A DNA stretch of 11,173 nt from an uncultured Gammaproteobacteria bacterium (GCA_964507075.1 CAZDOL010000005.1:12164-23336); one strand, 5' to 3'; numbered from the stretch's first letter, positions 83 to 11,173 are shown. Notes: generated by a model not told the origin, from the sequence alone. A program made the numbers and translations.

Positions 83-862
83 TCATTTTTTCACTTTTTT
101 ATTATCTTTTTCGCCTTCCTTGACTTTGCTTGGAACCTCATCTTTATTTTCCTTTTTGCCGACAATAACCGCCTCTGCTACCAATCTGGTGATTAGCTCC
201 ACTGATTTTAAGGCATCATCGTTGGCTGGAATAGGCCAATCTACCAATTCTGGATTGGCATTTGTGTCTATTATAGCTATAACAGGAACCTTACACTTTA
301 TGGCCTCCAATAAAGCTGTTTTTTCATGAATGGCATCCACAATATAAATTAAATCTGGCTTTTTTTTCAAACTACTAATGCCTCCAACCATTGTCTTCAA
401 TTTCTCCAACTCTCTACTTAAATCCAAACGTTCTTTTTTTGTATATTTCTGCCAGGCATCAGATTCTGATTCTTCTGACATCTTGTTAAATTTGTCAATT
501 AACTTGAAAATTGTAGAAAAATTGGTCAAAGTTCCCCCCAACCATCTTTGGCTGATATAGGGAACGCCTGCCTTTTGAGCATATTTTTCAACAATATCCT
601 TAGCTATGGGTTTGGTACCCAAAAAAAGAATATTAGAGCCAGCGCTTATTTGTTCTATCACAAAATTAACTGCTTCTTGCAATTTAATAACTGTTTGGTC
701 TAAATCAATAAAATGAATGTTATTCCTTGATGCGCAAATAAATGGCTTCATTTTCGGGAGACATTTATTCTTGAGATGTCCTAATTGCGCGCCAGCCTCA
801 GCCAATTCATCGGCAGATGGTATTGAAATAGGAGTATGCTTTGCTTTAGATTGAGTAACCAT
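83..862 (-). CDS. rpsB: 30S ribosomal protein S2
   Basis: The translation carries the S2 signature stretches: AGAQLGHLKNKCLPKMKPFI (compare GxHFGHxxxxWNPKM), ILFLGTK, and GVPYISQRWLGGTLTNF (compare RWLGGxLTN). It also has IYIVD and VPVIAIIDTNANPELVDWPIPANDDALKSVELI (compare IPxxAxxDTNxDPxxxDxxIPxNDDAxRxI). Relative to classical S2 there are about 15 extra N-terminal residues and a Lys-rich C-terminal tail (KKENKDEVPSKVKEGEKDNKKVKK). The stop is TGA at 83-85. Confidence 0.93.
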   Translation of the reverse strand: MVTQSKAKHTPISIPSADELAEAGAQLGHLKNKCLPKMKPFICASRNNIHFIDLDQTVIKLQEAVNFVIEQISAGSNILFLGTKPIAKDIVEKYAQKAGVPYISQRWLGGTLTNFSTIFKLIDKFNKMSEESESDAWQKYTKKERLDLSRELEKLKTMVGGISSLKKKPDLIYIVDAIHEKTALLEAIKCKVPVIAIIDTNANPELVDWPIPANDDALKSVELITRLVAEAVIVGKKENKDEVPSKVKEGEKDNKKVKK

Positions 863-912
863 AAGTATTACTATTTTAATTAACTAACTTTTTAAGATTT
901 ATCAACAATTTT

Positions 913-940
913 ATTATAACAAACAAAACCCAAATAGCAA
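913..940 (-). promoter_or_regulatory. Candidate sigma70-type promoter for rpsB
   Basis: The minus strand reads TTGCTA (935-940), a 16-nt spacer ending in TGT (an extended -10 TGn), then TATAAT (913-918). It lies about 50 nt upstream of the rpsB ATG at 862. No Shine-Dalgarno sequence is visible in front of that ATG. Confidence 0.5.
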
Positions 941-965
941 CCCCATTTTTATAATAAATTAACTC

Positions 966-994
966 TTGACAAATTGGGTAAAATGTGCCATAAT
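966..994 (+). promoter_or_regulatory. Candidate strong sigma70-type promoter for the 1042-1608 gene
   Basis: TTGACA (966-971), a 17-nt spacer ending in TGC (extended -10 TGn), then CATAAT (989-994). An A/T-rich UP-like tract lies just upstream (946-965). It sits back-to-back with the rpsB promoter candidate, with 25 nt between the two -35 boxes. Confidence 0.65.
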
Positions 995-1028
995 ATCAAT
1001 AATGTTCTTTCAAGGAAGAATAAAAAAA

Positions 1029-1034
1029 AGGAGG
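1029..1034 (+). promoter_or_regulatory. Shine-Dalgarno sequence (AGGAGG)
   Basis: A perfect AGGAGG lies 7 nt upstream of the ATG at 1042. It is the only clear SD I can see in front of any gene in this window. Confidence 0.7.
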
Positions 1035-1041
1035 TGCTAAA

Positions 1042-1608
1042 ATGAAAATAGCACTTAAGTTGATTGTAATAGTATGTATTATCGTCTTTCTGACCCTCTC
1101 TTATGTTGGGATGAGAAAGAATCATCAAGTTGTTGGGAAGTTGGATTACGATTGGAATCAAAAAATCAAGGAGATTGGGAAAAATATTGATGCCAATACT
1201 GCAATGATTGACAAAAACACCACAACCATTGATTCCAACACTACAGTAATTGGTGCCAACACTACATTAATTGATGCCAACACTACATTAATTGATGCAA
1301 ATACTGAGTTAATTGGAAAAAACGCTACGGCAATTCAGACGCTTTCTGATGCACACAAAGAACTTGCAAATATCGTATATGCCCACGGCCGAAAAGTAAA
1401 TCGTGTAATTTGGGAATTAGTTTTCAAAATTGCTTATGGAGACACAGAAAAAGCCCGCATCACCTGGAATCAATACTGCAAGTGCACAAATCTTCCTTTA
1501 TGGGAAGAGGCTGTTTCCATGTTGAGCCAAAAAGAAGCTGAAAAATTGCTCAAGATTAATGAGATTCAATCTAAGATTCAGGCCATTGATGATCAATTAA
1601 ACCAATAA
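1042..1608 (+). CDS. N-terminally membrane-anchored coiled-coil protein with seven IxxNTxx (N@d-type) heptads; function unknown
   Basis: The 188-aa ORF has its own promoter, SD and terminator. Residues about 4-24 (KIALKLIVIVCIIVFLTLSYVGM) form a hydrophobic anchor. Residues 49-97 are seven consecutive heptads: IDANTAM IDKNTTT IDSNTTV IGANTTL IDANTTL IDANTEL IGKNATA. The C-terminal ~90 aa are unrecognised, contain CKC, and end in a short coiled-coil-like stretch (INEIQSKIQAIDDQL). Confidence 0.8.
   Translation: MKIALKLIVIVCIIVFLTLSYVGMRKNHQVVGKLDYDWNQKIKEIGKNIDANTAMIDKNTTTIDSNTTVIGANTTLIDANTTLIDANTELIGKNATAIQTLSDAHKELANIVYAHGRKVNRVIWELVFKIAYGDTEKARITWNQYCKCTNLPLWEEAVSMLSQKEAEKLLKINEIQSKIQAIDDQLNQ
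1186..1332 (+). repeat. Seven tandem 21-nt coding repeats (period of one heptad)
   Basis: Units start at 1186, 1207, 1228, 1249, 1270, 1291 and 1312. Units 4 and 5 (attggtgccaacactacatta and attgatgccaacactacatta) differ at one base. Confidence 0.9.
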
Positions 1609-1624
1609 TACCTACAACAAAAAA

Positions 1625-1660
1625 AACCGAGGTGGATTTATCATCTCGGTTTTCTCGTTT
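1625..1660 (+). terminator. Rho-independent terminator of the 1042-1608 gene
   Basis: The stem AACCGAGGTGG (1625-1635) pairs with TCATCTCGGTT (1641-1651), giving 11 bp including two G-U pairs, with the 5-nt loop ATTTA. It is followed by TTCTCGTTTT and lies 17 nt after the TAA stop. Confidence 0.7.
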
Positions 1661-1669
1661 TATATAAAC

Positions 1670-1702
1670 AAAAAGTTTGGGAACTCGGTTCCCAAACTTT
1701 TT
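1670..1702. terminator. Perfect-palindrome bidirectional terminator
   Basis: AAAAAGTTTGGGAAC (1670-1684), loop TCG, then GTTCCCAAACTTTTT (1688-1702). This is a perfect 15-bp inverted repeat with an A5 tract on one side and a T5 tract on the other. It lies 20 nt downstream of the stop of the minus-strand 1722-2039 gene and also backs up the plus-strand terminator. Confidence 0.78.
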
Positions 1703-1721
1703 ATTTCTCTATTAAATTCTA

Positions 1722-2039
1722 TTATTTCAAAGCAGACATAAATTCAGTAGTAAAAACATCCAGAGCTTTCTTCACTATCTCTTCATAGTTCTCAATCCGA
1801 GAGCTAAAAAACTCCTGCACTTTGGGATCTTTAGCATCTGGGTTCTCCCCTAGTAATTTCTCATAATCAGCCAAACCTTTATCATCTAAAGCATCCACTG
1901 AAACCAAACCCAATCTTCGCTGGATTTGTTCCATTAGTTTATTTTTATAAAGTTCTAATTCTTCTTCTGGTAAAGTAATGTTTGCTTGCTGAATTAAGCT
2001 ATCAGCAAAAGCTTCTATTGGATTTTTTTCTTCAGTCAT
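1722..2039 (-). CDS. Small acidic, probably all-helical protein of unknown function, partner of the giant protein
   Basis: The 105-aa ORF has no hydrophobic segment and is rich in E/D/L/K. The pattern ITLPEEELELYKNKLMEQIQRRL...LDDKGLADYEKLL...VQEFFSSRIENYEEIVKKALDVFTTEF recalls a small-protein family common in CPR genomes. I believe that family is catalogued as a DUF (possibly DUF5663), but this is unverified memory. It lies 56 nt downstream of the giant gene with no convincing promoter or terminator between them. Confidence 0.72.
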   Translation of the reverse strand: MTEEKNPIEAFADSLIQQANITLPEEELELYKNKLMEQIQRRLGLVSVDALDDKGLADYEKLLGENPDAKDPKVQEFFSSRIENYEEIVKKALDVFTTEFMSALK

Positions 2040-2095
2040 AATAATAATTTATTATAAATTTATAATTTTAAATTAATTAATATACAACCCCTAAA

Positions 2096-5000
2096 CTATA
2101 CTGCATTTATAATAGATCCTGGCATTAGTTGTTTAGCTTTTTCTAGGACTCCATTAATAAGCTTTTGTTGCTGCTCAATAAGAGAATTCATATTGCTATC
2201 CACTAAAGTGTTCGGCGTCCTATTCATTAACTCTTCAAAAGAGTTCATCATACCCGCATGTTCTGTAACCATATTATTTAGCACATTTCTTTGAGTTTCT
2301 ACCGCAGAAAATGATTGCTCCAAAATTGTTTCTTGCCCCGCAATCTGCTCTGCAATATCACCACTATGAAAAAAACGACGCATTGAGCCCCATAAGCCTG
2401 AGGCATCTTTTAGGTTTGTTAATGACTCTAAATTTCCACAAGCAGTATTACATGCATCTGTAGTTTGAAGCAGGCTTCCTTCTGAAAAAGTACTAATAGC
2501 GTCGCTTACACTCTTTATGTTTGTGCCTAATTCCGTCGCTCTATTTTGTATTTCACCACCCAACAAAGAAGACGTTTCTGTAACCTTCTTAACAAACTCT
2601 GCGCCAACTTCGTCGGTCCCACTAAGCAAACGAGCAGCTTCAACTAAATTTTCATTCCCCACCTTACCTATTCCCTGATCTATAACAGAACCAAAAACTT
2701 CTGGATTATGGAGTATAGTCTGTATTTGTTCTGGAGAAGCTTCCGCTCCTATCACTCCAACCGCTCTTTCTTGTATTTCTTGAACAAATCCTGAACCACA
2801 CTGATCGGGGCCTCCCATAATATTCACAGTCCTAAACAATTCTTTGCTGGTTGAGCCATCTATGTCTTTCATTACCTCTCCAATGAATTCGCGATTAGTA
2901 GCAATATTTTTTAAATCTTCTGGCGATAAAGCATTCGCTTTTTCTAGCGCTTCATTCACATCAGTATCTTCAAAAATTTTAGTAAAGTTTAAATCATCCC
3001 CTATCTTCAAAGAGCTAGCATCTCCACCATCAATTCCAACCAAAGCAGGATTTGCCGCCATTTTATCTTTGTATAAATCTATCAGATAATCTTTCTTAGA
3101 TTGGTCTAGTTCGTCCCAACCAGGCACTCTTGGCTTTAATTGATGTTCAGCTAATTTCCAAGATGTATCTCCTTCTTTAACTTTCACGGTTGAATATTTA
3201 GCCATTTTCTCTTCAAACTCTTTTCGGCTTTTCTCTAACTCTTCATCTAAATTAACCTTTGATTCTGTATCTAATGGCACTTTTTCGACTGGTTCTGTCT
3301 TTCCTGGCACTTTTTCGACTGGTTCTGACTTTAAATTTTTCTCGGCAGCCATTTTTTCTTTTTTCTCTCGCATTTTGTCACCGATAAAATCACTTATCAG
3401 ATAACCTGCGGCTCCACCAACAATACCGAAACCATATTTTAATATTTTAGAACGTTTTTGAGCACTTATCCTTTTCTTAACAGATTCTTCAAGGGCGTCA
3501 TTGGTCTTTTCTACATATCCCTTTTCGCCATCTTGTTTATTGCCCAAAAGCTTGTCTAATTTTGTTCTATCAATATCAAAAATTTTATCTTGCAATTTAG
3601 CATGCTCTATTGGATTAGATGCTTTAAATTTTGGGTCTGCAAGTTGTGCTTTAGCTCTAATAATTTCTTCTGGATTATCCATATTTAAATTTTCTGCCGA
3701 AATCTGACCTAATTCTTTAAATCTTTTACTTTTTGATATATACAAATCAGCAGCTGCTGAACCCAATTTCACTCCAGCATAAGCCATTAAAATATTTCTG
3801 ACTAATGGACATGACCTTGCCAATACACCAGCAATAGCAAATATGCCAGCCGTAACTAACTTCTCTCTGGTCTGATTATCTCCTGTTTTAGCTCCTCCCA
3901 AAAACACAGGACTACTTAGAAATGAATCTATTTTTGAAAAAATTTTACCAGCCAAACTTGCTTTGCGCTTAACAAAACCAAGTTCCATAATTTTCTGATT
4001 ATCTTCTAATTCCACTAATTGCGCGGACAGTTTTACTCTTTTTTCTATATCCTCTGGACTCAAACCTCCATCCTGCTCTGTTAGATATTTTTTAATTTGC
4101 TCTTTATGAAACTCTCTTCTCTTGGCATAAAGTTCTTGTAATTTCTTTTTTGATTCAGGATCTTTGGGGTCATACGCTTTCTCTAAATCATTAATTTCTT
4201 TACCTATAGCAGTATGTTCCTTGCTTTCTCCATCAATTTGATTTTGTTTTTCTATTGATAATCTAACTGAAATATCATCATAAAAATTATCAAGCATATT
4301 ATCCATTTCTTTTTTGTCTTCTTTAGACATATCTACTATATCTGCTTTACTCATATCTCCTAAAAGCATATATTTTACTTCGGCCGCGGCCTGTTCTCTG
4401 GCTTGGCGTTCCTTTTTACCATTCAAAAGAGTTTCCACAAGCCTGCCAACACCAATGCCAATGCCAGCGCCAATACCACCCGTAACCGCGCCCAAGGCAA
4501 TGCCACCAATACCATAAAGTGCTATTTTCCCAAGAGCTTTACCCCATTTTTTCCACTTAGATTCTTTACCTGATTTTTTCTTTTTTGTATTTTGATAAAC
4601 AATTTTTTCTAATTTAGCTTTTTGTGTATCTACAATTTTTTGAACCTCTTCTTTGGGAAGATCCATCTGTTCTGATAAAGCATCAATCTTATCCTCATAT
4701 GCTTTATTTTTATCTTGATCCTCTTTTTCGTAAGATAGCGTCATTAAATTTTTAATTTCTGCTTCGCACATTTCTTTAACATTTTCTTTATCGACAAATT
4801 TCACTTTCTCTTTTAATTTTGTCTTTTCTTCTTCGCTGATATCTTCCCTTAAGTCAATTTTTGTTTCATAAAGCATTTCTTTGTCTTCCATGGCTTTCCG
4901 ATTGGCTTCGTCTTCTTTTGCTTTTTCTTCAGGAGTCATCTCCTTGGGACCTTTTGATTTTTTATGTTTAGTGGTATTTTCTACGACTTCTGATTGTTCT

Positions 5001-5809
5001 TCTTTTTTTAACTTACCATTAAGTTCTTCTAATTTTTCTTGTAAATATTTTTCCATCTCTGGAAGATTTCTAAAATCCAAAAGACTTGCGTCTTCGCCAT
5101 TTTCCATTTTATATATCTTTCTGGTGATATCTCCAATTTTTCCTGGGTCTTTGCTCTTGAGAGCTTCTTGAATTTCTTCCATTAACTCTTTGTCTAGTGA
5201 TATTTCTCTCTCTGTAGATACTCCTGTATCCGTGGTTTCTGTACTTTCTGTTTTTTCCTCGGGCTCTCCTGTATTCATGGTTTCTGTATCTTTTACTGTT
5301 TCTTTTGCTTCTTCGGATTTTTTACCTTTAATCACAATCTCTTCTAATTTTTGATTTAATTCAGCAATATCTGTATCTATTGCCGCATTAGTTTCTTTTA
5401 ATTGGCCTCCGCGCAACAATCCCTCATTCGTTTCTTGGGTTTTTTGTTTTTGTTTGATTAAACCTAAAATTTTGGTAGCTCCACTATATTTATCCAAACC
5501 GTCCTGTAGTGTTAATGTTTTATCTTTAATCTCCTGAATATCTGTATCTATTGCCGCATTAGTTTCTTTTAATTGGCCTCCGCGCAACAATCCCTCATTC
5601 GTTTCTTGGGTTTTTTGTTTTTGTTTGATTTGGCTTTGAGAAAAAATAATGTTTTCCTCAGATTGTTTAAGAAAACTTTTAAATTCATCAACTGAATCAA
5701 ATCGCGCTAAAGATTGAGGATCTTTAGCTTCTTGCTCTTTGTTTTCTATATTATCAGAGTTCTTGACATCCTTTCCAGAATCTTTTGGAATATTTTTTTC
5801 CATATTCAT
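2096..5809 (-). CDS. Giant (1237 aa) polytopic membrane protein of unknown function: charged coiled-coil N-terminal region, Gly-zipper TM segments, Pro-rich linker, LysM-like module, unrecognised C-terminal domain
   Basis: An uninterrupted 3.7-kb ORF with its own promoter candidate. There is no signal peptide, and the N-terminal ~420 aa are K/E/D-rich. Hydrophobic segments: ALGKIALYGIGGIALGAVTGGIGAGIGIGVG (DNA ~4440-4545), LVTAGIFAIAGVLA plus ILMAYAGVKLGSAAADLY (~3740-3859), and ILKYGFGIVGGAAGYLISDFIG (~3381-3446). After these come the EPVEKVPGKT/EPVEKVPLDT linker, a LysM-like stretch (2984-3196) and a ~295-aa G/S/T/N/Q-rich C-terminal region. Confidence 0.9.
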   Translation of the reverse strand: MNMEKNIPKDSGKDVKNSDNIENKEQEAKDPQSLARFDSVDEFKSFLKQSEENIIFSQSQIKQKQKTQETNEGLLRGGQLKETNAAIDTDIQEIKDKTLTLQDGLDKYSGATKILGLIKQKQKTQETNEGLLRGGQLKETNAAIDTDIAELNQKLEEIVIKGKKSEEAKETVKDTETMNTGEPEEKTESTETTDTGVSTEREISLDKELMEEIQEALKSKDPGKIGDITRKIYKMENGEDASLLDFRNLPEMEKYLQEKLEELNGKLKKEEQSEVVENTTKHKKSKGPKEMTPEEKAKEDEANRKAMEDKEMLYETKIDLREDISEEEKTKLKEKVKFVDKENVKEMCEAEIKNLMTLSYEKEDQDKNKAYEDKIDALSEQMDLPKEEVQKIVDTQKAKLEKIVYQNTKKKKSGKESKWKKWGKALGKIALYGIGGIALGAVTGGIGAGIGIGVGRLVETLLNGKKERQAREQAAAEVKYMLLGDMSKADIVDMSKEDKKEMDNMLDNFYDDISVRLSIEKQNQIDGESKEHTAIGKEINDLEKAYDPKDPESKKKLQELYAKRREFHKEQIKKYLTEQDGGLSPEDIEKRVKLSAQLVELEDNQKIMELGFVKRKASLAGKIFSKIDSFLSSPVFLGGAKTGDNQTREKLVTAGIFAIAGVLARSCPLVRNILMAYAGVKLGSAAADLYISKSKRFKELGQISAENLNMDNPEEIIRAKAQLADPKFKASNPIEHAKLQDKIFDIDRTKLDKLLGNKQDGEKGYVEKTNDALEESVKKRISAQKRSKILKYGFGIVGGAAGYLISDFIGDKMREKKEKMAAEKNLKSEPVEKVPGKTEPVEKVPLDTESKVNLDEELEKSRKEFEEKMAKYSTVKVKEGDTSWKLAEHQLKPRVPGWDELDQSKKDYLIDLYKDKMAANPALVGIDGGDASSLKIGDDLNFTKIFEDTDVNEALEKANALSPEDLKNIATNREFIGEVMKDIDGSTSKELFRTVNIMGGPDQCGSGFVQEIQERAVGVIGAEASPEQIQTILHNPEVFGSVIDQGIGKVGNENLVEAARLLSGTDEVGAEFVKKVTETSSLLGGEIQNRATELGTNIKSVSDAISTFSEGSLLQTTDACNTACGNLESLTNLKDASGLWGSMRRFFHSGDIAEQIAGQETILEQSFSAVETQRNVLNNMVTEHAGMMNSFEELMNRTPNTLVDSNMNSLIEQQQKLINGVLEKAKQLMPGSIINAV
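3275..3327 (-). repeat. Two tandem 30-nt-period coding repeats (EPVEKVP linker)
   Basis: tggcactttttcgactggttctg occurs at 3275-3297 and again, identically, at 3305-3327. Confidence 0.85.
5366..5630 (-). repeat. Perfect 94-bp direct repeat (2 copies) inside the giant gene, in-frame period 171 nt
   Basis: 5366-5459 and 5537-5630 are identical base for base by my reading. Each encodes IKQKQKTQETNEGLLRGGQLKETNAAIDTDI (residues 61-91 and 118-148). The 77-nt spacer is unique sequence. Confidence 0.95.
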
Positions 5810-5852: not shown

Positions 5853-5881
5853 AATATAGCAAAAAATAGCTCTTTTGTCAA
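5853..5881 (-). promoter_or_regulatory. Candidate strong sigma70-type promoter for the giant gene
   Basis: The minus strand reads TTGACA (5876-5881), a 17-nt spacer ending in TGC (extended -10), then TATATT (5853-5858). It lies about 45 nt upstream of the ATG at 5809. No SD is visible. Confidence 0.6.
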
Positions 5882-5887
5882 TAAGTT

Positions 5888-5900
5888 GGGGACAGTCCCC
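5888..5900 (-). other. Short GC hairpin overlapping the helicase stop codon
   Basis: GGGGAC-T-GTCCCC (plus strand ggggacagtcccc) is a perfect palindrome. There is no downstream U-tract, so it is not a canonical terminator. It sits directly upstream of the giant-gene -35 box. Confidence 0.3.
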
Positions 5901-8839
5901 TATATTCTATAATCACAAATATTATAAAAATCGCAATATTTGCACAATTGACTAGGATTTGGAGAGAAATCGCTCTTTTCAATTTGTTTAATCCTCTCGG
6001 TTAATTTTTCCCGCATTTTCTCCAATTCTTCGGGTTGAGCCGAGAAAAATACTTTTTCTCCGCTTTCTAAATAATAATAAGTTAAAAGGTTAACTGGCTT
6101 TTGAAATAGAGAATTTAAGGATTGAGAGGCCAATTGATAAATCAAAAGCTGTTCCTTGTCTTCGGCTGTTAATTTACTTTTTGGATTGCCCGTTTTGTAA
6201 TCTATTAGCTCTAGGCCCCCTTTCACAACATCTACTCTATCTATTTTGCCCTTAATCCAGTATTCTCCTAATTTAAAAACAAAATTCTGTTCCACTCCTA
6301 TGACTTGAGGAGGATTCTTAATAAAATCTTCATAAAAATCTTTTAAAATCCTTTTTCCTTTATCTTTGTATTCTTTTCTTTGTTCTTCGCTGTCATACCA
6401 ATCTTCGTTCCATGATTTTTGATATATTTTTAGCAAATCTTTTAATTCCAAGGTATTTTTTTTCTCTGGCTTATCTTTTTTTTCAATAAATAAATTTGTT
6501 TGCACCGCTCCTTTGCCAGCGAGCCATTGCTTAACAAAAATCTGCAAAGTATTGTGAATGGTATTTCCAAAACTAAAAGCTGGTTTTCCTTGTCGTGGAA
6601 GACGAAGTATGAAAGAAAATTTGTATTGCAAGGGACACTTTTGAAAAGCGCTTAGCTGAGAAAAACTAAATTTACTTGGCAAATATATTTTTTCCTTTTC
6701 ATCAACCAATAGGGTCTTTTCGTTGCGCATATAATGGCCAAGAGATGTTAGCCCTGTAAATTTTTGTTTTTCTTCTAATTTTAATTCTTCTAAAAAACGA
6801 GATAATTTTTTCGTAATTTTTCCACCATAATCCTCAGCTGATGTCAAAAATAGTCCGTCTTTGGCACGAGTTAATGCTACATAAAAAAGTCTTCTTTCTT
6901 CCTGTAAATGAACATCTCCTTCTGGAATTGATTCCTTGATTAATTCCAAGGGCAATTCAATTGCCTCTCTTCTGTGAATTGAAGGAAAACGACGGTCCAC
7001 TAAATTAACCACAAAAACCCATCTAAATTCTAATCCTTTGGCGCTGTGCACAGTGGTTATTTTAACTGCTTCTGGGCCAGAGTCTGTTTCAGATGACATA
7101 GACCCAGTATCGCCAGTATCAATCATCAAATCAATCATTTTATTGAAATTGGGCAAAGATTTGTCAAAATTAGCTTCTTCAAAACTCTCTGCTTTCTTAA
7201 AAAATTGATTAAGCCAAAAAATGCTTTGTTGTCCATCCTTCTTTTTAGACAAAATATTCAAATAACCGCTCTCTTGCAGGAATGCGTAGATAATCTTAGT
7301 AATGTTTTCGTTTTTAGCCAATTCAGTGTGTTTTTCAATCATATTTAAAAATTTGACAATTTCTCCAATTGTTTTTTCTGACAATCCTGGGATAATACTA
7401 GCATTTTTCATGGCCTGATAAAAAGACCAACTTTTTTTATTAGCAAAATAGATAAAATTGGACAAATCCTCGTGACTAATCTTTTGATTAAAAATAGGGG
7501 AAGAAAATAAACGATAAATAGATGTGCTTTCTCTATAATTATCCAGCAACCTTAAATAGGCCAAAATATCTAAAATGACTGGTTTGGAAAATAGCCCTCT
7601 GTGAGCTAAAAACTGATAAGGAATATTAGCAAAATGCAGGGCTTGACAAAACATTTCCGCGTGTTTATTCGCGCGAACTAAAATAGCAAAATCATTCCAA
7701 GTAGAATCAGAATTTTCTTTCTTTAAATCAATAATCTTTTTGATAACTAAGCTGGTCTCGTCCTCTTTGGTTTTAGCGTGAAAATGCCTGATTTCAGCTT
7801 TTCCTTTTCTTTCTGCCTCAAGCTTTTTGATTATTCCTTTGTATTGCGCCTCCAAACGAGCAGGATTATTGGCCTGGATAAAGTTATAAGATAGGTCTAA
7901 AATATTTTGAAAAGAACGATAATTTTTAATTAAAACGATTTGTTTTGATTTGGGATAATCTTTTTTAAATTGCAAAACATTATTATATGAGGACCCCCGG
8001 AAACGATATACAGATTGGTCATCATCAAAAACTACCGTAATATTATTTTTGGGCTCTAACAACATCTTAAGTAATTCATACTGAGCCCAATTAGTGTCTT
8101 GAAACTCATCAACTAATATATATTTAAATTGCTTTCTGTATTTTTCTAAAATCTGAGGACGATTTTTGAAAAGCTGAATAGTGTAATTAATTAAATCGCC
8201 AAAATCAAGCGCGTTATTGTCTAAAAGCAACTGCTGATAAGTATGATAAGCTTGAGATACTTCTTGTGCCCTGGCCGCTTCTTGGTTAAGGGCTTCGCCA
8301 GACATTGAAGAATCATTATTAAGCTTAAGGTTTTCAGCATAAGACAAATAATCAACAGGAGTAATCAATTCATCTTTAGCGCGAGAAAAATGCTTCATCA
8401 GAGCGGAAATAAATTTAGTGGGATTTCCTAAGGGACGATAATAATCAAGATTAAATTTATTAAAATTTTGCTGAACCAAAAAGGCCTGTTGGGTTTCGTC
8501 CAATAATTTAAAATCAATAGGCAAACCAATATCTAAAGCGTGCTCTTCTAAAATCCTTTGACAGAAAGAATGAAAAGTAGAAATCCAAAGCTCAACATAG
8601 CCATAGGGTAAGAGCCTATCAACCCTTTCTTCCATTTCCTGAGAAGCTTTGTCAGTGAAAGTCAAAGCCAAAATTTCTTCTGGTTTCGCCAACTTTTGCT
8701 CAATCAACCAAGCAATACGTCGAGTAATAACAGTTGTTTTGCCTGTGCCAGCACCAGCAATAATCAAACAAGGACCATTTTTAAAAGTCACTGCTTGTTT
8801 CTGTTCTGTATTCAAATTTTCTAAAACATTCTTTTTCAT
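5900..8839 (-). CDS. UvrD/PcrA-type SF1 ATP-dependent DNA helicase fused to a C-terminal Cas4/AddB-like 4-Cys PD-(D/E)XK nuclease
   Basis: All SF1A helicase motifs are present. They are Q-motif LNTEQKQAV, I AGAGTGKT (8735-8755), Ia ILALTFTDKASQEM, TFHSFC, II ILVDEFQDTN and III VVFDDDQSVYRFRGS. They continue with IV IKNYRS, AILVRAN, V TTVHSAKGLEF and VI ERRLFYVALTRAKDGLFL. The nuclease module (~5903-6690) has FSFSQLSAFQKCPLQYKF (Cys at 6635-6637), GKIDRVD...LELIDYKTG (6189-6251), QLLIYQLA and C-terminal CKYCDFYNIC (5915-5944). That gives the C...CxxCx5C pattern of [4Fe-4S] nucleases. Confidence 0.92.
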   Translation of the reverse strand: MKKNVLENLNTEQKQAVTFKNGPCLIIAGAGTGKTTVITRRIAWLIEQKLAKPEEILALTFTDKASQEMEERVDRLLPYGYVELWISTFHSFCQRILEEHALDIGLPIDFKLLDETQQAFLVQQNFNKFNLDYYRPLGNPTKFISALMKHFSRAKDELITPVDYLSYAENLKLNNDSSMSGEALNQEAARAQEVSQAYHTYQQLLLDNNALDFGDLINYTIQLFKNRPQILEKYRKQFKYILVDEFQDTNWAQYELLKMLLEPKNNITVVFDDDQSVYRFRGSSYNNVLQFKKDYPKSKQIVLIKNYRSFQNILDLSYNFIQANNPARLEAQYKGIIKKLEAERKGKAEIRHFHAKTKEDETSLVIKKIIDLKKENSDSTWNDFAILVRANKHAEMFCQALHFANIPYQFLAHRGLFSKPVILDILAYLRLLDNYRESTSIYRLFSSPIFNQKISHEDLSNFIYFANKKSWSFYQAMKNASIIPGLSEKTIGEIVKFLNMIEKHTELAKNENITKIIYAFLQESGYLNILSKKKDGQQSIFWLNQFFKKAESFEEANFDKSLPNFNKMIDLMIDTGDTGSMSSETDSGPEAVKITTVHSAKGLEFRWVFVVNLVDRRFPSIHRREAIELPLELIKESIPEGDVHLQEERRLFYVALTRAKDGLFLTSAEDYGGKITKKLSRFLEELKLEEKQKFTGLTSLGHYMRNEKTLLVDEKEKIYLPSKFSFSQLSAFQKCPLQYKFSFILRLPRQGKPAFSFGNTIHNTLQIFVKQWLAGKGAVQTNLFIEKKDKPEKKNTLELKDLLKIYQKSWNEDWYDSEEQRKEYKDKGKRILKDFYEDFIKNPPQVIGVEQNFVFKLGEYWIKGKIDRVDVVKGGLELIDYKTGNPKSKLTAEDKEQLLIYQLASQSLNSLFQKPVNLLTYYYLESGEKVFFSAQPEELEKMREKLTERIKQIEKSDFSPNPSQLCKYCDFYNICDYRI

Positions 8840-8842
8840 GCT

Positions 8843-9544
8843 CTACTCTAAATTTATTTTTTTTCTAACTCGTGGAGTTGATTTGATGATATTTATTGCG
8901 AACCCAAGAATAGACTCCAGTTTAGATTTAGGAATTCCTTTAACAGAAATGTCAAATTCGTATGCAGATGCATAGTCATGCAAGCGTCTATAAGATTTAG
9001 TTTTAAAATCAAATTTCTTTTCAAATCCGCTAACAAATCTGTATGTGTGTGGTTTGCTTTCGTATATACCAAAATCCCAAAGTTCATTTATGTGAATTTT
9101 ATATTTAAAATCATTCATTTTTTTTACTCTTATTCCTATATGGTCTCCGTAAGCACTTTCTTTTTCGTCGGTAATCCAATCTTGTTTGCCATAAAAAGCC
9201 CCAAAATTTTTAACACGTTGTTGTATTTTTTCTATTATCTCTTCCGTTTTTTCGCTCATAAAATCAATTGGAAATTCCTTGGCTTTTTCGGCTTTTTCTT
9301 TTAGAATCTCATAATTTTTCGCAAGTATTTCTGATTGTTCATAAATTTTATAATATCTATCATCATTTACCATATCAATTTGTCCCAACATTTCATATAA
9401 TTTAGTAGCTTCTGACCTCAAATTTGATTTTTCTGGAAATAATAATGTTCCTTTTCTCGTCCACAATATTATTTCTTTGCATAATGCAATGACTTCTTTT
9501 TCTTTACTGCCTAAGTTTTCGTAGTACTTTTTAAATGTTTCCAT
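8843..9544 (-). CDS. Hypothetical protein (233 aa), translationally coupled to the helicase-nuclease
   Basis: The ORF fills the space between its neighbours exactly. Its TAG stop (8843-8845) is 3 nt from the helicase ATG (8839), and its ATG (9544) is 3 nt from the upstream TAA. The N-terminal half is helical and charged; the C-terminal half is aromatic and Lys-rich (WDFGIYESKPHTYRFVSGFEKKFDFKTKSYRRLHDYASAYEF). There is no TM segment and no motif I recognise. Confidence 0.72.
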   Translation of the reverse strand: METFKKYYENLGSKEKEVIALCKEIILWTRKGTLLFPEKSNLRSEATKLYEMLGQIDMVNDDRYYKIYEQSEILAKNYEILKEKAEKAKEFPIDFMSEKTEEIIEKIQQRVKNFGAFYGKQDWITDEKESAYGDHIGIRVKKMNDFKYKIHINELWDFGIYESKPHTYRFVSGFEKKFDFKTKSYRRLHDYASAYEFDISVKGIPKSKLESILGFAINIIKSTPRVRKKINLE

Positions 9545-9547
9545 ATT

Positions 9548-10318
9548 TTAATGCTTTTTTATGCGTAACATATTTTTAAAATACGCCCAATGCCATGAGA
9601 TATGAAATATTGAAATTACAAACATTGCTATGCCAATTTCAACATGCCAAAACAGAATATTAAAAGGCAATGGAATTATTGAACCAAAATTAATTCTCAC
9701 AATTAATAAAATACCTAATATTCCAGAAATTAAAAATGTAATAAGTAATAAAATATTCCAAATTTTCCTGTGAGTTATAATCTTAATAATTTTTTTCTTA
9801 GATAAGATATGACTAATAAAATATAAAACGATTAGAAATAAAGAAATTGACAAAAGATGATAAACTCCTTTATTTTCCTCTTCATTCGCCTCTACCACAT
9901 CTATTGGCGTCCCAAGTTTTATGGATGCGGCAATACCTTTCACTATGCTTGGCTCCATACCATAATTATCATGCAAAAGTTGAAAAGAATAATTAGGATT
10001 TATTTTTGAACCATAATATTCTGATAATTTTTCTGCATACTTATTCGCCTCAATTTGATAAATTTCAGCAACCTCACTCACAGTTTTTGATTTTAATTCA
10101 CTGCCACTTATCAAATTATCAACATTTTCTTCCGAAACTCGGACCCTGCTCTCAGGAGCTGGCTGAGAGTGGTCGCATATTCCGTCATTATCAGTATCTA
10201 TAAATAACTCGCATTCCTCGTCACATAGAGTTTTTCCTACTGGACAATCTTCCCACGCCAAAGCTACTGCAGGGATTAGAGATAGTAAAGGCAAAACAAA
10301 GATTATTTTTTTCATCAT
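9548..10318 (-). CDS. Secreted/membrane protein: signal peptide, Cys-rich DxDxDG segment, soluble domain, and a C-terminal 3-TM His-bearing module (possibly DUF4405/cytochrome-b-like)
   Basis: Signal peptide MMKKIIFVLPLLSLIPAVALA (10256-10318). It is followed by WEDCPVGKTLCDEECELFIDTDNDGICD, where DTDNDGICD (10172-10198) matches a thrombospondin-type-3/DxDxDG Ca-binding loop. There are three TM helices at residues ~152-173, 186-207 and 221-246 (DNA 9581-9865). They carry H154, H170, H225, H239 and H243, including WHVEIGIAMFVISIFHISWHW. Confidence 0.8.
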   Translation of the reverse strand: MMKKIIFVLPLLSLIPAVALAWEDCPVGKTLCDEECELFIDTDNDGICDHSQPAPESRVRVSEENVDNLISGSELKSKTVSEVAEIYQIEANKYAEKLSEYYGSKINPNYSFQLLHDNYGMEPSIVKGIAASIKLGTPIDVVEANEEENKGVYHLLSISLFLIVLYFISHILSKKKIIKIITHRKIWNILLLITFLISGILGILLIVRINFGSIIPLPFNILFWHVEIGIAMFVISIFHISWHWAYFKNMLRIKKH

Positions 10319-10328
10319 AATATTTTAG

Positions 10329-11036
10329 CTATTTATTAACATTGACATTTGGAGACTTAGTCTCCAATTCTTTGAGTTTCTTCTTCCACCATTCTTTCAC
10401 GGCTTTTGTATGAACCTTAGGACCTGCCTTTCTGAGAAAAGTAATTCTTTCTTTAAATAATTTATGATGTTTTTTTAAATTTTCTGGATTCTGAAGCGCC
10501 CACAAAGAATGATTTAACTCTGCTTTTTCTTTTTTGGCTAAAAATTCAAGAGAAATGTATCTGTTTGATGATATATCAAAATCAATTGGAATTACTTTAA
10601 AATTATGATTTTTATTTAGTATTTTTTTAGCAAGAATTTTTATTCTTTTTTCTCGTGTTTGCTCGCAAAAAATATATAAATTAGATTTTCTAATTTTTCT
10701 TTTTTGAATGATTTTTTGACAATTTAAAAGATTTTCTAAAGTTGAAAGAGGGTTTTTTCCTAATACAAAGGACCAATCTTTTGTTATTTCTTTCAAGAAT
10801 AATCTTTTACTTAGCTTCTCTAATAATTTAACCATTTCACCTGCCTCGCTCCTCTTATACGGTTTAAACATATCTGTTCTCCCGCCACTACAAATAATTA
10901 CAGGAGATTTTGCTTTGTTTTTGGTTACTAAATCATAAATCTTATTAAAAACCGTTTTTAAATAAAAATTATAATTTTCATCCTTGAGGATATTTTTGGG
11001 TATCCCGTATCCTAAAATTAGAAAAACATTTCTCAT
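10329..11036 (-). CDS. DUF218 / YdcF-ElyC-SanA-like family protein
   Basis: The conserved DUF218 landmarks appear in order: FLILGYG, PVIICSGG, SEAGEMVKLL, LSTLENL (compare S-x-nT-x-EN) and LYIFCEQTREKRIKILA. The C-terminal ~70 aa are Lys-rich and unrecognised. The ATG at 11034-11036 overlaps the upstream TGA (ATGA). Confidence 0.62.
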   Translation of the reverse strand: MRNVFLILGYGIPKNILKDENYNFYLKTVFNKIYDLVTKNKAKSPVIICSGGRTDMFKPYKRSEAGEMVKLLEKLSKRLFLKEITKDWSFVLGKNPLSTLENLLNCQKIIQKRKIRKSNLYIFCEQTREKRIKILAKKILNKNHNFKVIPIDFDISSNRYISLEFLAKKEKAELNHSLWALQNPENLKKHHKLFKERITFLRKAGPKVHTKAVKEWWKKKLKELETKSPNVNVNK

Positions 11037-11173
11037 ATAATTAATTTAAATAATTTTTGGGCATTAGTGGTTGTTGTCTTGTCTACGTCTTCAAGAGAAA
11101 TATCTTTTATCTCCGCAATTTTTTGAGCAGTGAATAAAACATAACCAGGTTCATTCCGTTCTCCTCTATGTGG
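11033..11173 (-). CDS. tatD: TatD-family metal-dependent hydrolase, C-terminal 46 codons (5' part outside the window)
   Basis: Not in the supplied ORF track. The minus strand read from 11173 translates as PHRGERNEPGYVLFTAQKIAEIKDISLEDVDKTTTTNAQKLFKLII*. This matches the conserved TatD C-terminus (P-x-RG-x-RNEP-x-x-V...IA...E...T-x-x-N-A-x-x-LF). The TGA stop is at 11033-11035. Confidence 0.75.
   Translation of the reverse strand, partial: PHRGERNEPGYVLFTAQKIAEIKDISLEDVDKTTTTNAQKLFKLII

Follow-up and report, generated by a model that had tools for sequence, protein, structure and literature searches.

Gene layout of the locus

Here, we analysed a stretch of 11,173 nucleotides (nt) of DNA (G000:C5:12164-23336, hereafter the window, with positions counted from its first letter) that contains a gene for a helicase-nuclease of 979 amino acids (aa) and, immediately upstream of it, a gene for a 233-aa protein which a preliminary description had put forward as its possible partner. 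The window belongs to an assembly of 613 kb in 30 contigs, estimated to be 92% complete, and its size, the related genomes and the names of database homologues point to a placement of this genome in the Patescibacteria (candidate phyla radiation, CPR), a group with very small genomes and a poorly understood DNA-repair toolkit. The genes considered here are all encoded on the minus strand; in the direction of transcription they are the 3' end of tatD, a gene for a 235-aa DUF218-like protein, genes for a 256-aa and the 233-aa protein, the 979-aa helicase-nuclease gene and, finally, genes for a giant protein of 1237 aa and a DUF5663 protein (Table 1). The two reading frames of 979 and 233 aa and the 3-nt gap between them, as given in the preliminary description, were confirmed by the list of open reading frames (ORFs) and by the sequence. 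Neither Rfam families nor tRNAs were found in the window, and no cas genes were detected in it.

We are largely confident that the 979-aa protein is the PcrA/UvrD helicase of Patescibacteria fused to a Cas4-like nuclease and that the 233-aa gene is not its partner, a judgement that covers the identity of both genes as well as the absent partnership.

Table 1. Features of the window, with positions counted from its first letter.
Feature	Position	Strand	Basis
979-aa helicase-nuclease gene, stop codon included	5900..8839	-	ORF list; Pfam, NCBIfam and PDB matches; AF2 model
SF1A PcrA/UvrD-type motor, aa 1-690	6770..8839	-	Invariant motifs; PDB profile; Foldseek
Probably flexible linker, aa 691-715	6695..6769	-	AF2 pLDDT below 50
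PD-(D/E)XK Cas4-like nuclease domain, aa 716-979	5903..6694	-	PF12705; invariant residues
Cysteine codons C735, C966, C969, C975	6635-6637, 5942-5944, 5933-5935, 5915-5917	-	Nuclease domain
233-aa gene, rare uncharacterised family	8843..9544	-	ORF list; sister-lineage orthologue
256-aa protein gene	9548..10318	-	194-aa orthologue in sister lineage
235-aa DUF218-like gene, patchy accessory	10329..11036	-	Weak DUF218 match
Three-gene insertion, ~2.2 kb, at the tatD/helicase junction	8840..11032	-	Comparison with relatives
tatD 3' end, ancestral upstream neighbour of the helicase	11033..11173	-	tblastn with TatD of a same-genus relative (G002)
REP-like palindrome, 19 nt, TTGGAGACTTAGTCTCCAA	10349..10367		Terminator scan; within 3' end of DUF218-like gene
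Sigma-70-like promoter match, strong, 11/12, TG-extended	5853..5881	-	Between helicase stop and 1237-aa gene

The motor of the 979-aa protein is closest to PcrA, UvrD and Rep

The N-terminal part of the 979-aa protein matches the Pfam families UvrD-helicase (PF00580, 281 bits against a cut-off of 23) and UvrD_C (PF13361, 170 bits against 25.6). The Walker A motif AGAGTGKT occupies aa 28-35 and the sequence DEFQDTN aa 244-250, and the motif set of superfamily 1A (SF1A), i.e., Q, I, Ia, II (DExQD), III, IV, V and VI, is complete. Across 30 genomic orthologues, motifs Q, I, Ia, II, IV, V and VI show practically no variation, and the motif III residues D272, Q275 and R281 are invariant in an alignment of 57 database homologues; the preliminary statement that all SF1A motifs are intact is borne out by both alignments, in which they are invariant or nearly so.

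Among NCBIfam families the best match was PcrA (TIGR01073, 506.5 bits, 1e-151, aa 6-689 only), ahead of Rep, UvrD, AddA and RecB, at a score that does not reach the PcrA equivalog cut-off of 911.2 bits. PcrA (1pjr) was also the best match in the PDB, where a profile built from the 57-sequence family scored 506 bits with this structure, 243 with AdnB, 231 with AddA and 79 with RecB. Domains 1A, 1B, 2A and 2B align end to end with those of PcrA, UvrD and Rep (1pjr, 2is1 and 1uaa) at 30-35% identity, with all motifs in place. A model computed from the 57-sequence alignment with AlphaFold2 (AF2; mean predicted local distance difference test score, pLDDT, of 82) has a PcrA-like motor at aa 1-690 and a compact nuclease domain. 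Between them, aa 691-715 form a linker with pLDDT below 50, which replaces the C-terminal region of PcrA and UvrD. Foldseek placed PcrA, UvrD and Rep at the top for the motor, and for the whole chain it returned AddA, AdnB, AdnA, AddB and RecB, the matches to AddA, AdnB and RecB revealing the motor-plus-nuclease layout. The motor is thus nearest to PcrA/UvrD/Rep rather than to AddA/AdnB/RecB. Unlike these three helicases, however, the 979-aa protein ends in a 265-aa putative iron-sulfur (Fe-S) nuclease, and no tudor-domain family of the PcrA/UvrD type was listed in its Pfam scan, the region after aa 690 consisting of the linker and PDDEXK_1.

The C-terminal domain carries invariant catalytic-type residues and four invariant cysteines

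The C-terminal domain matches PDDEXK_1 (PF12705) with 127.8 bits against a cut-off of 22, over model positions 2-247 of 247. In the 30- and 57-sequence alignments, the catalytic-type residues H762, D867, D880-Y-K882 and Q897...Y901 are invariant, and this set is still invariant in orthologues down to about 50% identity. The same alignments confirmed the four-cysteine C...CxxCx5C arrangement noted in the preliminary description, since none of the full-length orthologues deviates at C735, C966, C969 or C975 (C-x230-C-x2-C-x5-C).

The domain scores just under the cut-off of Cas_Cas4 (PF01930, 22.4 bits against 22.7) and under that of cas4 (TIGR00372, 55.7 bits against 65, with the whole model covered). 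Its C-terminal CxxCx5C aligns with that of PDB entry 9iab, a 273-aa PD-(D/E)XK endonuclease-like protein which, going by the chain name and the abstract of PMC12094033, is probably ACE1, an Argonaute-associated enzyme of the Cas4 family. With Cas4, solo-Cas4 and ACE1 the domain shares a PD-(D/E)XK core with the C...CxxCx5C ligand pattern; unlike them, it is fused to a helicase. The best PDB sequence matches of the nuclease domain were AdnB and AdnA, and in the alignment AdnB has no cysteine at the position matching C735. Judging by the ligand pattern, the four cysteines should bind an Fe-S cluster, and an IscU/NifU-type Fe-S scaffold is encoded in the genome.

It could be argued that this domain is a structural or regulatory appendage, such as a DNA-binding Fe-S wedge or pin, and that the nuclease does not process ends. 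The protein would then have no function other than that of an accessory replicative helicase or anti-recombinase. In favour of this view, the motor clearly resembles that of PcrA, 5' resection could come from RecJ, which the genome encodes, and in AdnAB the Fe-S subdomain of AdnA is structural at the Y-junction (PMC8789073). Nevertheless, the invariance of H762, D867, D880, K882, Q897 and Y901 down to about 50% identity would be unexpected for a purely structural domain, and we consider this explanation unlikely.

The fusion is conserved among relatives

The 979-aa protein was matched in 58 of 60 related genomes, more than 40 of these matches being full-length with 51-90% identity. When 150 genomes drawn evenly across the phylum were searched, the nuclease domain was matched at E <=1e-10 in 85, mostly at the C-terminal end of reading frames of ~960-1070 aa. 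In the protein database, the 979-aa protein is represented by more than 2,800 clusters, under names such as 'UvrD-helicase domain-containing protein', 'ATP-dependent DNA helicase PcrA' and 'PD-(D/E)XK nuclease family protein'; the near-universal "PcrA" annotation in Patescibacteria thus hides a helicase fused to a putative Fe-S nuclease. In comparison with a sister lineage, the helicase is 92% identical, with a ratio of nonsynonymous to synonymous substitution rates (dN/dS) of 0.05. Because of this near-universal conservation and low dN/dS, we regard the fusion as an ancient core gene, vertically inherited and of a housekeeping nature, and not as a gene of a defence island.

Fusions of this architecture are already known. 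In the survey by Hudaiberdiev et al. 2017 (PMC5704561), UvrD-Cas4-like fusions make up the largest branch of pfam12705, which is monophyletic; they stand alone in many genomes or lie beside type III restriction-modification (R-M) or Dcm/Vsr genes, and their hosts mostly also encode RecB. The 979-aa protein resembles them in its N-terminal UvrD-like SF1 helicase and C-terminal Cas4-like PD-(D/E)XK nuclease, a likeness of architecture. It differs from them in being a core gene, syntenic with tatD, whose product is the only RecB-/UvrD-family protein of the genome. Thus, of the unusual single-chain architecture highlighted in the preliminary description the fusion itself is real, while its novelty had been overstated. 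What sets the present case apart is the setting, namely a core gene that is near-universal in a phylum of reduced genomes and has no RecB, AddAB or UvrAB beside it. In the literature, we found no paper with biochemistry of such a fusion protein or discussing one for Patescibacteria.

The preliminary description also allowed for an anti-phage helicase-nuclease. Candidates for such a role would be UvrD-Cas4 fusions like those found near type III R-M or Dcm/Vsr genes, or a Gabija-like GajB. Three observations speak for it: UvrD-Cas4 fusions are tied to defence loci (PMC5704561), the helicase adjoins a variable insertion, and the GajB models of PADLOC reach up to 335 bits on the motor. These GajB matches, however, cover the generic UvrD core only, and no neighbour matches GajA or another PADLOC component; in contrast to Gabija (GajA and GajB), no GajA-type OLD-family ATPase/TOPRIM nuclease was found by PADLOC among the neighbouring proteins. 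Defence genes are typically patchy in their distribution, whereas this gene is near-universal, single-copy and syntenic with tatD and cdd, with the low dN/dS given above. That it encodes the only SF1A helicase of the genome also argues for an essential core role. We therefore regard an anti-phage function of this locus as highly improbable.

Some orthologues are interrupted. Intein-like insertions occur in copies at G004:C3:55417-59424, G031:C18:18578-22891, G028:C73:12414-15596 and G049:C1:10252-13287, where the ORFs measure 1100-1443 aa and alignment with the window protein is disrupted near aa 180, 277, 335 or 452, and Intein_splicing or Hint Pfam domains were found in the database members P0015, P0029, P0063, P0082, P0085, P0090 and P0091. 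In one genus (g25: G033, G043, G048, G053 and G054), the helicase is encoded in two pieces, with the break near aa 335, about the middle of the motor. The two ORFs, of ~340-365 aa and ~650-668 aa, occupy separate loci, which in G033 lie 35 kb apart (C12:115130-116125 and 80604-82604). For split inteins the extensions at this break seem too short, and stop codons occur in some of the copies.

One UvrD-type helicase and one PF12705 nuclease were found in the genome, both in the 979-aa gene

In its own genome, PF00580 and PF12705 gave one match each, both in the 979-aa gene, and neither RecC nor AddB was found in the 92%-complete assembly. The lack of a second subunit gene, which the preliminary description had noted at the locus, therefore extends genome-wide at this level of completeness, and no AddAB-, RecBCD- or AdnAB-type partner came to light. 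The 1237-aa downstream ORF was considered as a missing AddA/AddB-like subunit and rejected, as it matches no helicase or nuclease family in Pfam or NCBIfam.

Partners of the UvrA or UvrB type were likewise not found in the genome, only generic ATPase/helicase fragments scoring with their models, and SufBD was not found either. With UvrA, UvrB and SufBD undetected, nucleotide-excision repair and the SUF pathway appear to be missing. RecA, RecJ, RecR and RecO are present, all above their cut-offs.

A similar picture was obtained for the 60 relatives. In most of them the fusion is the only UvrD-type helicase, about a dozen having in addition a stand-alone helicase of ~620-790 aa. About half have no further PF12705 protein, and where extra ones exist they are nearly all small solo proteins of ~230-290 aa; the single exception is G060, whose only PF12705 match sits in a 1129-aa ORF. 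An AddB-sized second PF12705 protein does not regularly co-occur with the fusion in these relatives.

The 233-aa gene and the three-gene insertion

The stop codon of the 233-aa gene (TAG) is followed by 3 nt and then by the ATG of the helicase, a spacing from which the preliminary description deduced coupled translation and, possibly, a stoichiometric partnership. Tight junctions are, however, common in this genome: the next upstream junction, between the 256-aa and 233-aa genes, also measures 3 nt, the end of tatD shares the four bases ATGA with the start of the DUF218-like gene, and a crude gene call puts about 15% of gene pairs on the same strand <=3 nt apart. Therefore, the 3-nt spacing reflects the compact operon structure of the genome and not a partnership. 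In compact genomes generally, tight gene spacing is weak evidence of partnership, and here the apparent partner came with a recent insertion, as follows from the comparisons below.

As stated in the preliminary description, the 233-aa protein has no recognisable motif; as a single sequence it gave no match in Pfam, NCBIfam, PADLOC, PHROGs or the PDB, and a Pfam scan of all 26 members of its family returned scattered sub-threshold noise only. The family profile retrieved only de novo designed helical proteins from the PDB, which we treated as spurious. The AF2 model, based on 3 sequences, reached a pLDDT of 54, and with this model Foldseek found nothing below E = 0.17, with template-modelling (TM) scores of <=0.24. 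An exhaustive HMMER scan identified 27 representatives of the family among 1.84 billion (1.84e9) proteins, most of them ~220-260 aa long, which share a conserved N-terminal helical domain, a YGD motif, the invariant residues D62, D134 and H189, and a C-terminal IKxxPR motif. An orthologue with 81% identity and a dN/dS of 0.27 is found in the sister lineage. The ORF is therefore a real gene, and it belongs to a rare accessory family.

The distribution of this family differs sharply from that of the helicase. No homologue of the 233-aa protein was found in any of the 60 relatives, both same-genus genomes included, and among 400 other genomes of the class a family member turned up in only 2, one of them degraded. 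In all five relatives whose gene order was examined (G001 and G002 of the same genus; G003, G007 and G017 of the same family), tatD directly abuts the helicase and is itself preceded by cdd, while in the genome studied here tatD is displaced by ~2.2 kb by the three genes. The same three-gene insertion was seen elsewhere only in the sister lineage, on metagenome contigs L039-L044. Since G002 is without the insertion despite a helicase that is 90% identical, a recent gain is the parsimonious reading of these comparisons.

Could the 233-aa protein nevertheless be a dedicated accessory or regulatory subunit, kept at a fixed ratio to the helicase by translational coupling? Apart from the 3-nt stop-to-start gap, this two-gene arrangement has in its favour that the adjacency is kept in the sister lineage, with the 233-aa gene at a dN/dS of 0.27, and that one distant homologue is found two genes ahead of recG. 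However, the helicase is matched in 58 of the same 60 relatives in which the 233-aa gene is missing from all, its direct upstream neighbour is tatD in five out of five, the neighbouring junction is spaced identically, and of the 400 other class genomes just the two mentioned contain a family member. Moreover, none of three distant contexts of the family has an adjacent UvrD-type helicase: in P0147/G069 the homologue is flanked on one side by GIY-YIG ORFs and on the other by a 176-aa gene that precedes recG, in P0140 between peptidase and AbiEii/glyoxalase fragments, and in G120 the copy is decayed. A lack of conserved linkage to the helicase is the outcome on which, according to the preliminary description, the module idea would fail, and a two-gene module as outlined there is very unlikely.

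In the recG context (L050, JGI 3300037810 contig, 598-5621; G069:C4:261-4122), the distant homologue follows small GIY-YIG ORFs and is placed two genes before recG, while radA is encoded on the other strand. This neighbourhood could be a loose tie to DNA-repair genes, or a coincidence.

Proposed role of the 979-aa protein

To our knowledge, in every bacterial resection machine characterised so far the 3'-5' motor and the 5'-strand Fe-S nuclease belong to different subunits. In AddAB, the motor subunit AddA is separate from the Fe-S nuclease subunit AddB, which is analogous to AdnA, and Cas4 is a 5'-3' exonuclease of single-stranded DNA. In AdnAB, the Fe-S cluster resides in the nuclease of the non-motor subunit AdnA, which is positioned at the Y-junction and cleaves the displaced 5' strand, AdnB being the motor (PMC8789073). 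The 979-aa protein resembles AddAB and AdnAB in its building blocks, an SF1A motor and a RecB-type nuclease, and in its whole-chain fold matches; unlike them, it holds motor and putative Fe-S nuclease in one chain, and no second subunit gene was found. In Dna2 and bacterial Bad, the nuclease is N-terminal to an SF1B (5'-3') motor, whereas the domain order of the 979-aa protein is reversed and its motor is of the SF1A type. Dna2 and Bad are described as one polypeptide with an Fe-S PD-(D/E)XK nuclease and an SF1 helicase (PMC7430649), a single-chain layout shared by the 979-aa protein.

Most likely, the 979-aa enzyme acts alone, as a monomer or homo-oligomer, as the only helicase-nuclease of the cell, because no RecBCD, AddAB, AdnAB, UvrA or UvrB was found in the genome, while RecA, RecJ, RecO and RecR are kept. 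It is probably also the one enzyme in this tiny genome that processes DNA ends. Of the minimalist, homo-oligomeric enzyme with a novel accessory factor that the preliminary description had envisaged, the partner-free, single-chain housekeeping enzyme is therefore retained, and the accessory factor is dropped on account of the 233-aa gene being absent from all 60 relatives. Like PcrA and UvrD, the motor is expected to move along single-stranded DNA in the 3'-5' direction, given what is known of SF1A helicases and the sequence and fold matches. The helicase-nuclease would then unwind DNA ends or gaps from the 3' strand, and the nuclease, by analogy with AddB, AdnA and Cas4, would trim the displaced 5' strand, leaving a 3' tail onto which RecO and RecR could load RecA; RecJ might act as a second 5' exonuclease. 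Taken alone, this specific mechanism of resection comes close to an even call in our judgement. Alternatively, it may be the tracked 3' strand that reaches the nuclease, which is the arrangement of RecB, AddA and AdnB. It is likely that accessory-helicase or anti-RecA duties of the PcrA type are retained by the 979-aa protein, and the lack of UvrA and UvrB speaks against a function in classical nucleotide-excision repair.

Several points weigh against this account of the two genes. A genome that is 92% complete and in 30 contigs leaves room for a missed partner or for UvrAB. With SufBD undetected, Fe-S assembly would depend on the IscU-type scaffold alone. The low confidence of the AF2 model in the linker means that neither the docking position of the nuclease nor the strand that reaches it is shown by the model. 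The published UvrD-Cas4 clade is tied to defence contexts (PMC5704561), and in two sister lineages the 233-aa gene stays next to the helicase and is under purifying selection, so that a lineage-specific interaction is possible. Finally, Fe-S binding, strand polarity and the role in resection and recombination are all predicted from homology.

With these points in mind, we put forward as a tentative proposal, to which we give somewhat less than an even chance, that in most Patescibacteria the PcrA/UvrD orthologue is permanently fused to an Fe-S Cas4-like nuclease, forming a complete end-resection machine that needs no partner, functionally replaces AddAB, RecBCD or AdnAB, and feeds RecOR and RecA. 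If this is true, a 3'-5' motor and a 5'-strand Fe-S nuclease act from a single chain. Should biochemistry confirm it, no simpler helicase-nuclease for recombinational repair would be known from bacteria, and the protein would be a compact system in which to study how an Fe-S nuclease and an SF1A motor cooperate.

Neighbouring genes and repeats

The flanking genes, TatD and DUF218, had been described as housekeeping-like. tatD is present in the window as a 3' fragment only, at its edge; its translation ends in ...KLFKLII*, and its TGA overlaps the following ATG. The 256-aa ORF was also considered as TatD and rejected, having no family match, the true tatD being the truncated ORF at the window edge. 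The DUF218 match of the 235-aa protein is weak (E = 3e-4, below the cut-off). Its gene occurs in 9 of the 60 relatives, with 65-67% identity at best and in other families, is missing from the same genus, and carries stop codons in several copies; it behaves as a mobile or frequently lost accessory gene.

The 256-aa protein gave no match in Pfam, NCBIfam, PADLOC or PHROGs. By eye, it has a hydrophobic, signal-peptide-like N-terminus, a stretch that is Cys-rich and contains DxDxDG, and a hydrophobic C-terminal part bearing His residues, and it is predicted to be an exported, Cys-rich membrane protein. Its orthologue in the sister lineage has 194 aa.

Downstream of the helicase, the 1237-aa protein looks low-complexity, partly hydrophobic and of an envelope type. 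The 90-nt gap between the helicase stop codon and the 1237-aa gene contains a near-consensus promoter match with an extended -10 element (TTGACA-17-TATATT) and a hairpin, GGGGACAGTCCCC (window 5853-5900). The promoter-like match in this gap suggests that the 1237-aa gene is transcribed apart from the helicase.

The REP-like (repetitive extragenic palindrome-like) sequence, which is translated as LETKSP within the 3' coding end of the DUF218-like gene, has the form TTGGAGACT(T/A)AGTCTCCAA. Eight copies of this palindrome are present genome-wide, the seven others at places such as C5:24339-24357 and C5:43159-43498; three copies are clustered at the end of contig C5.

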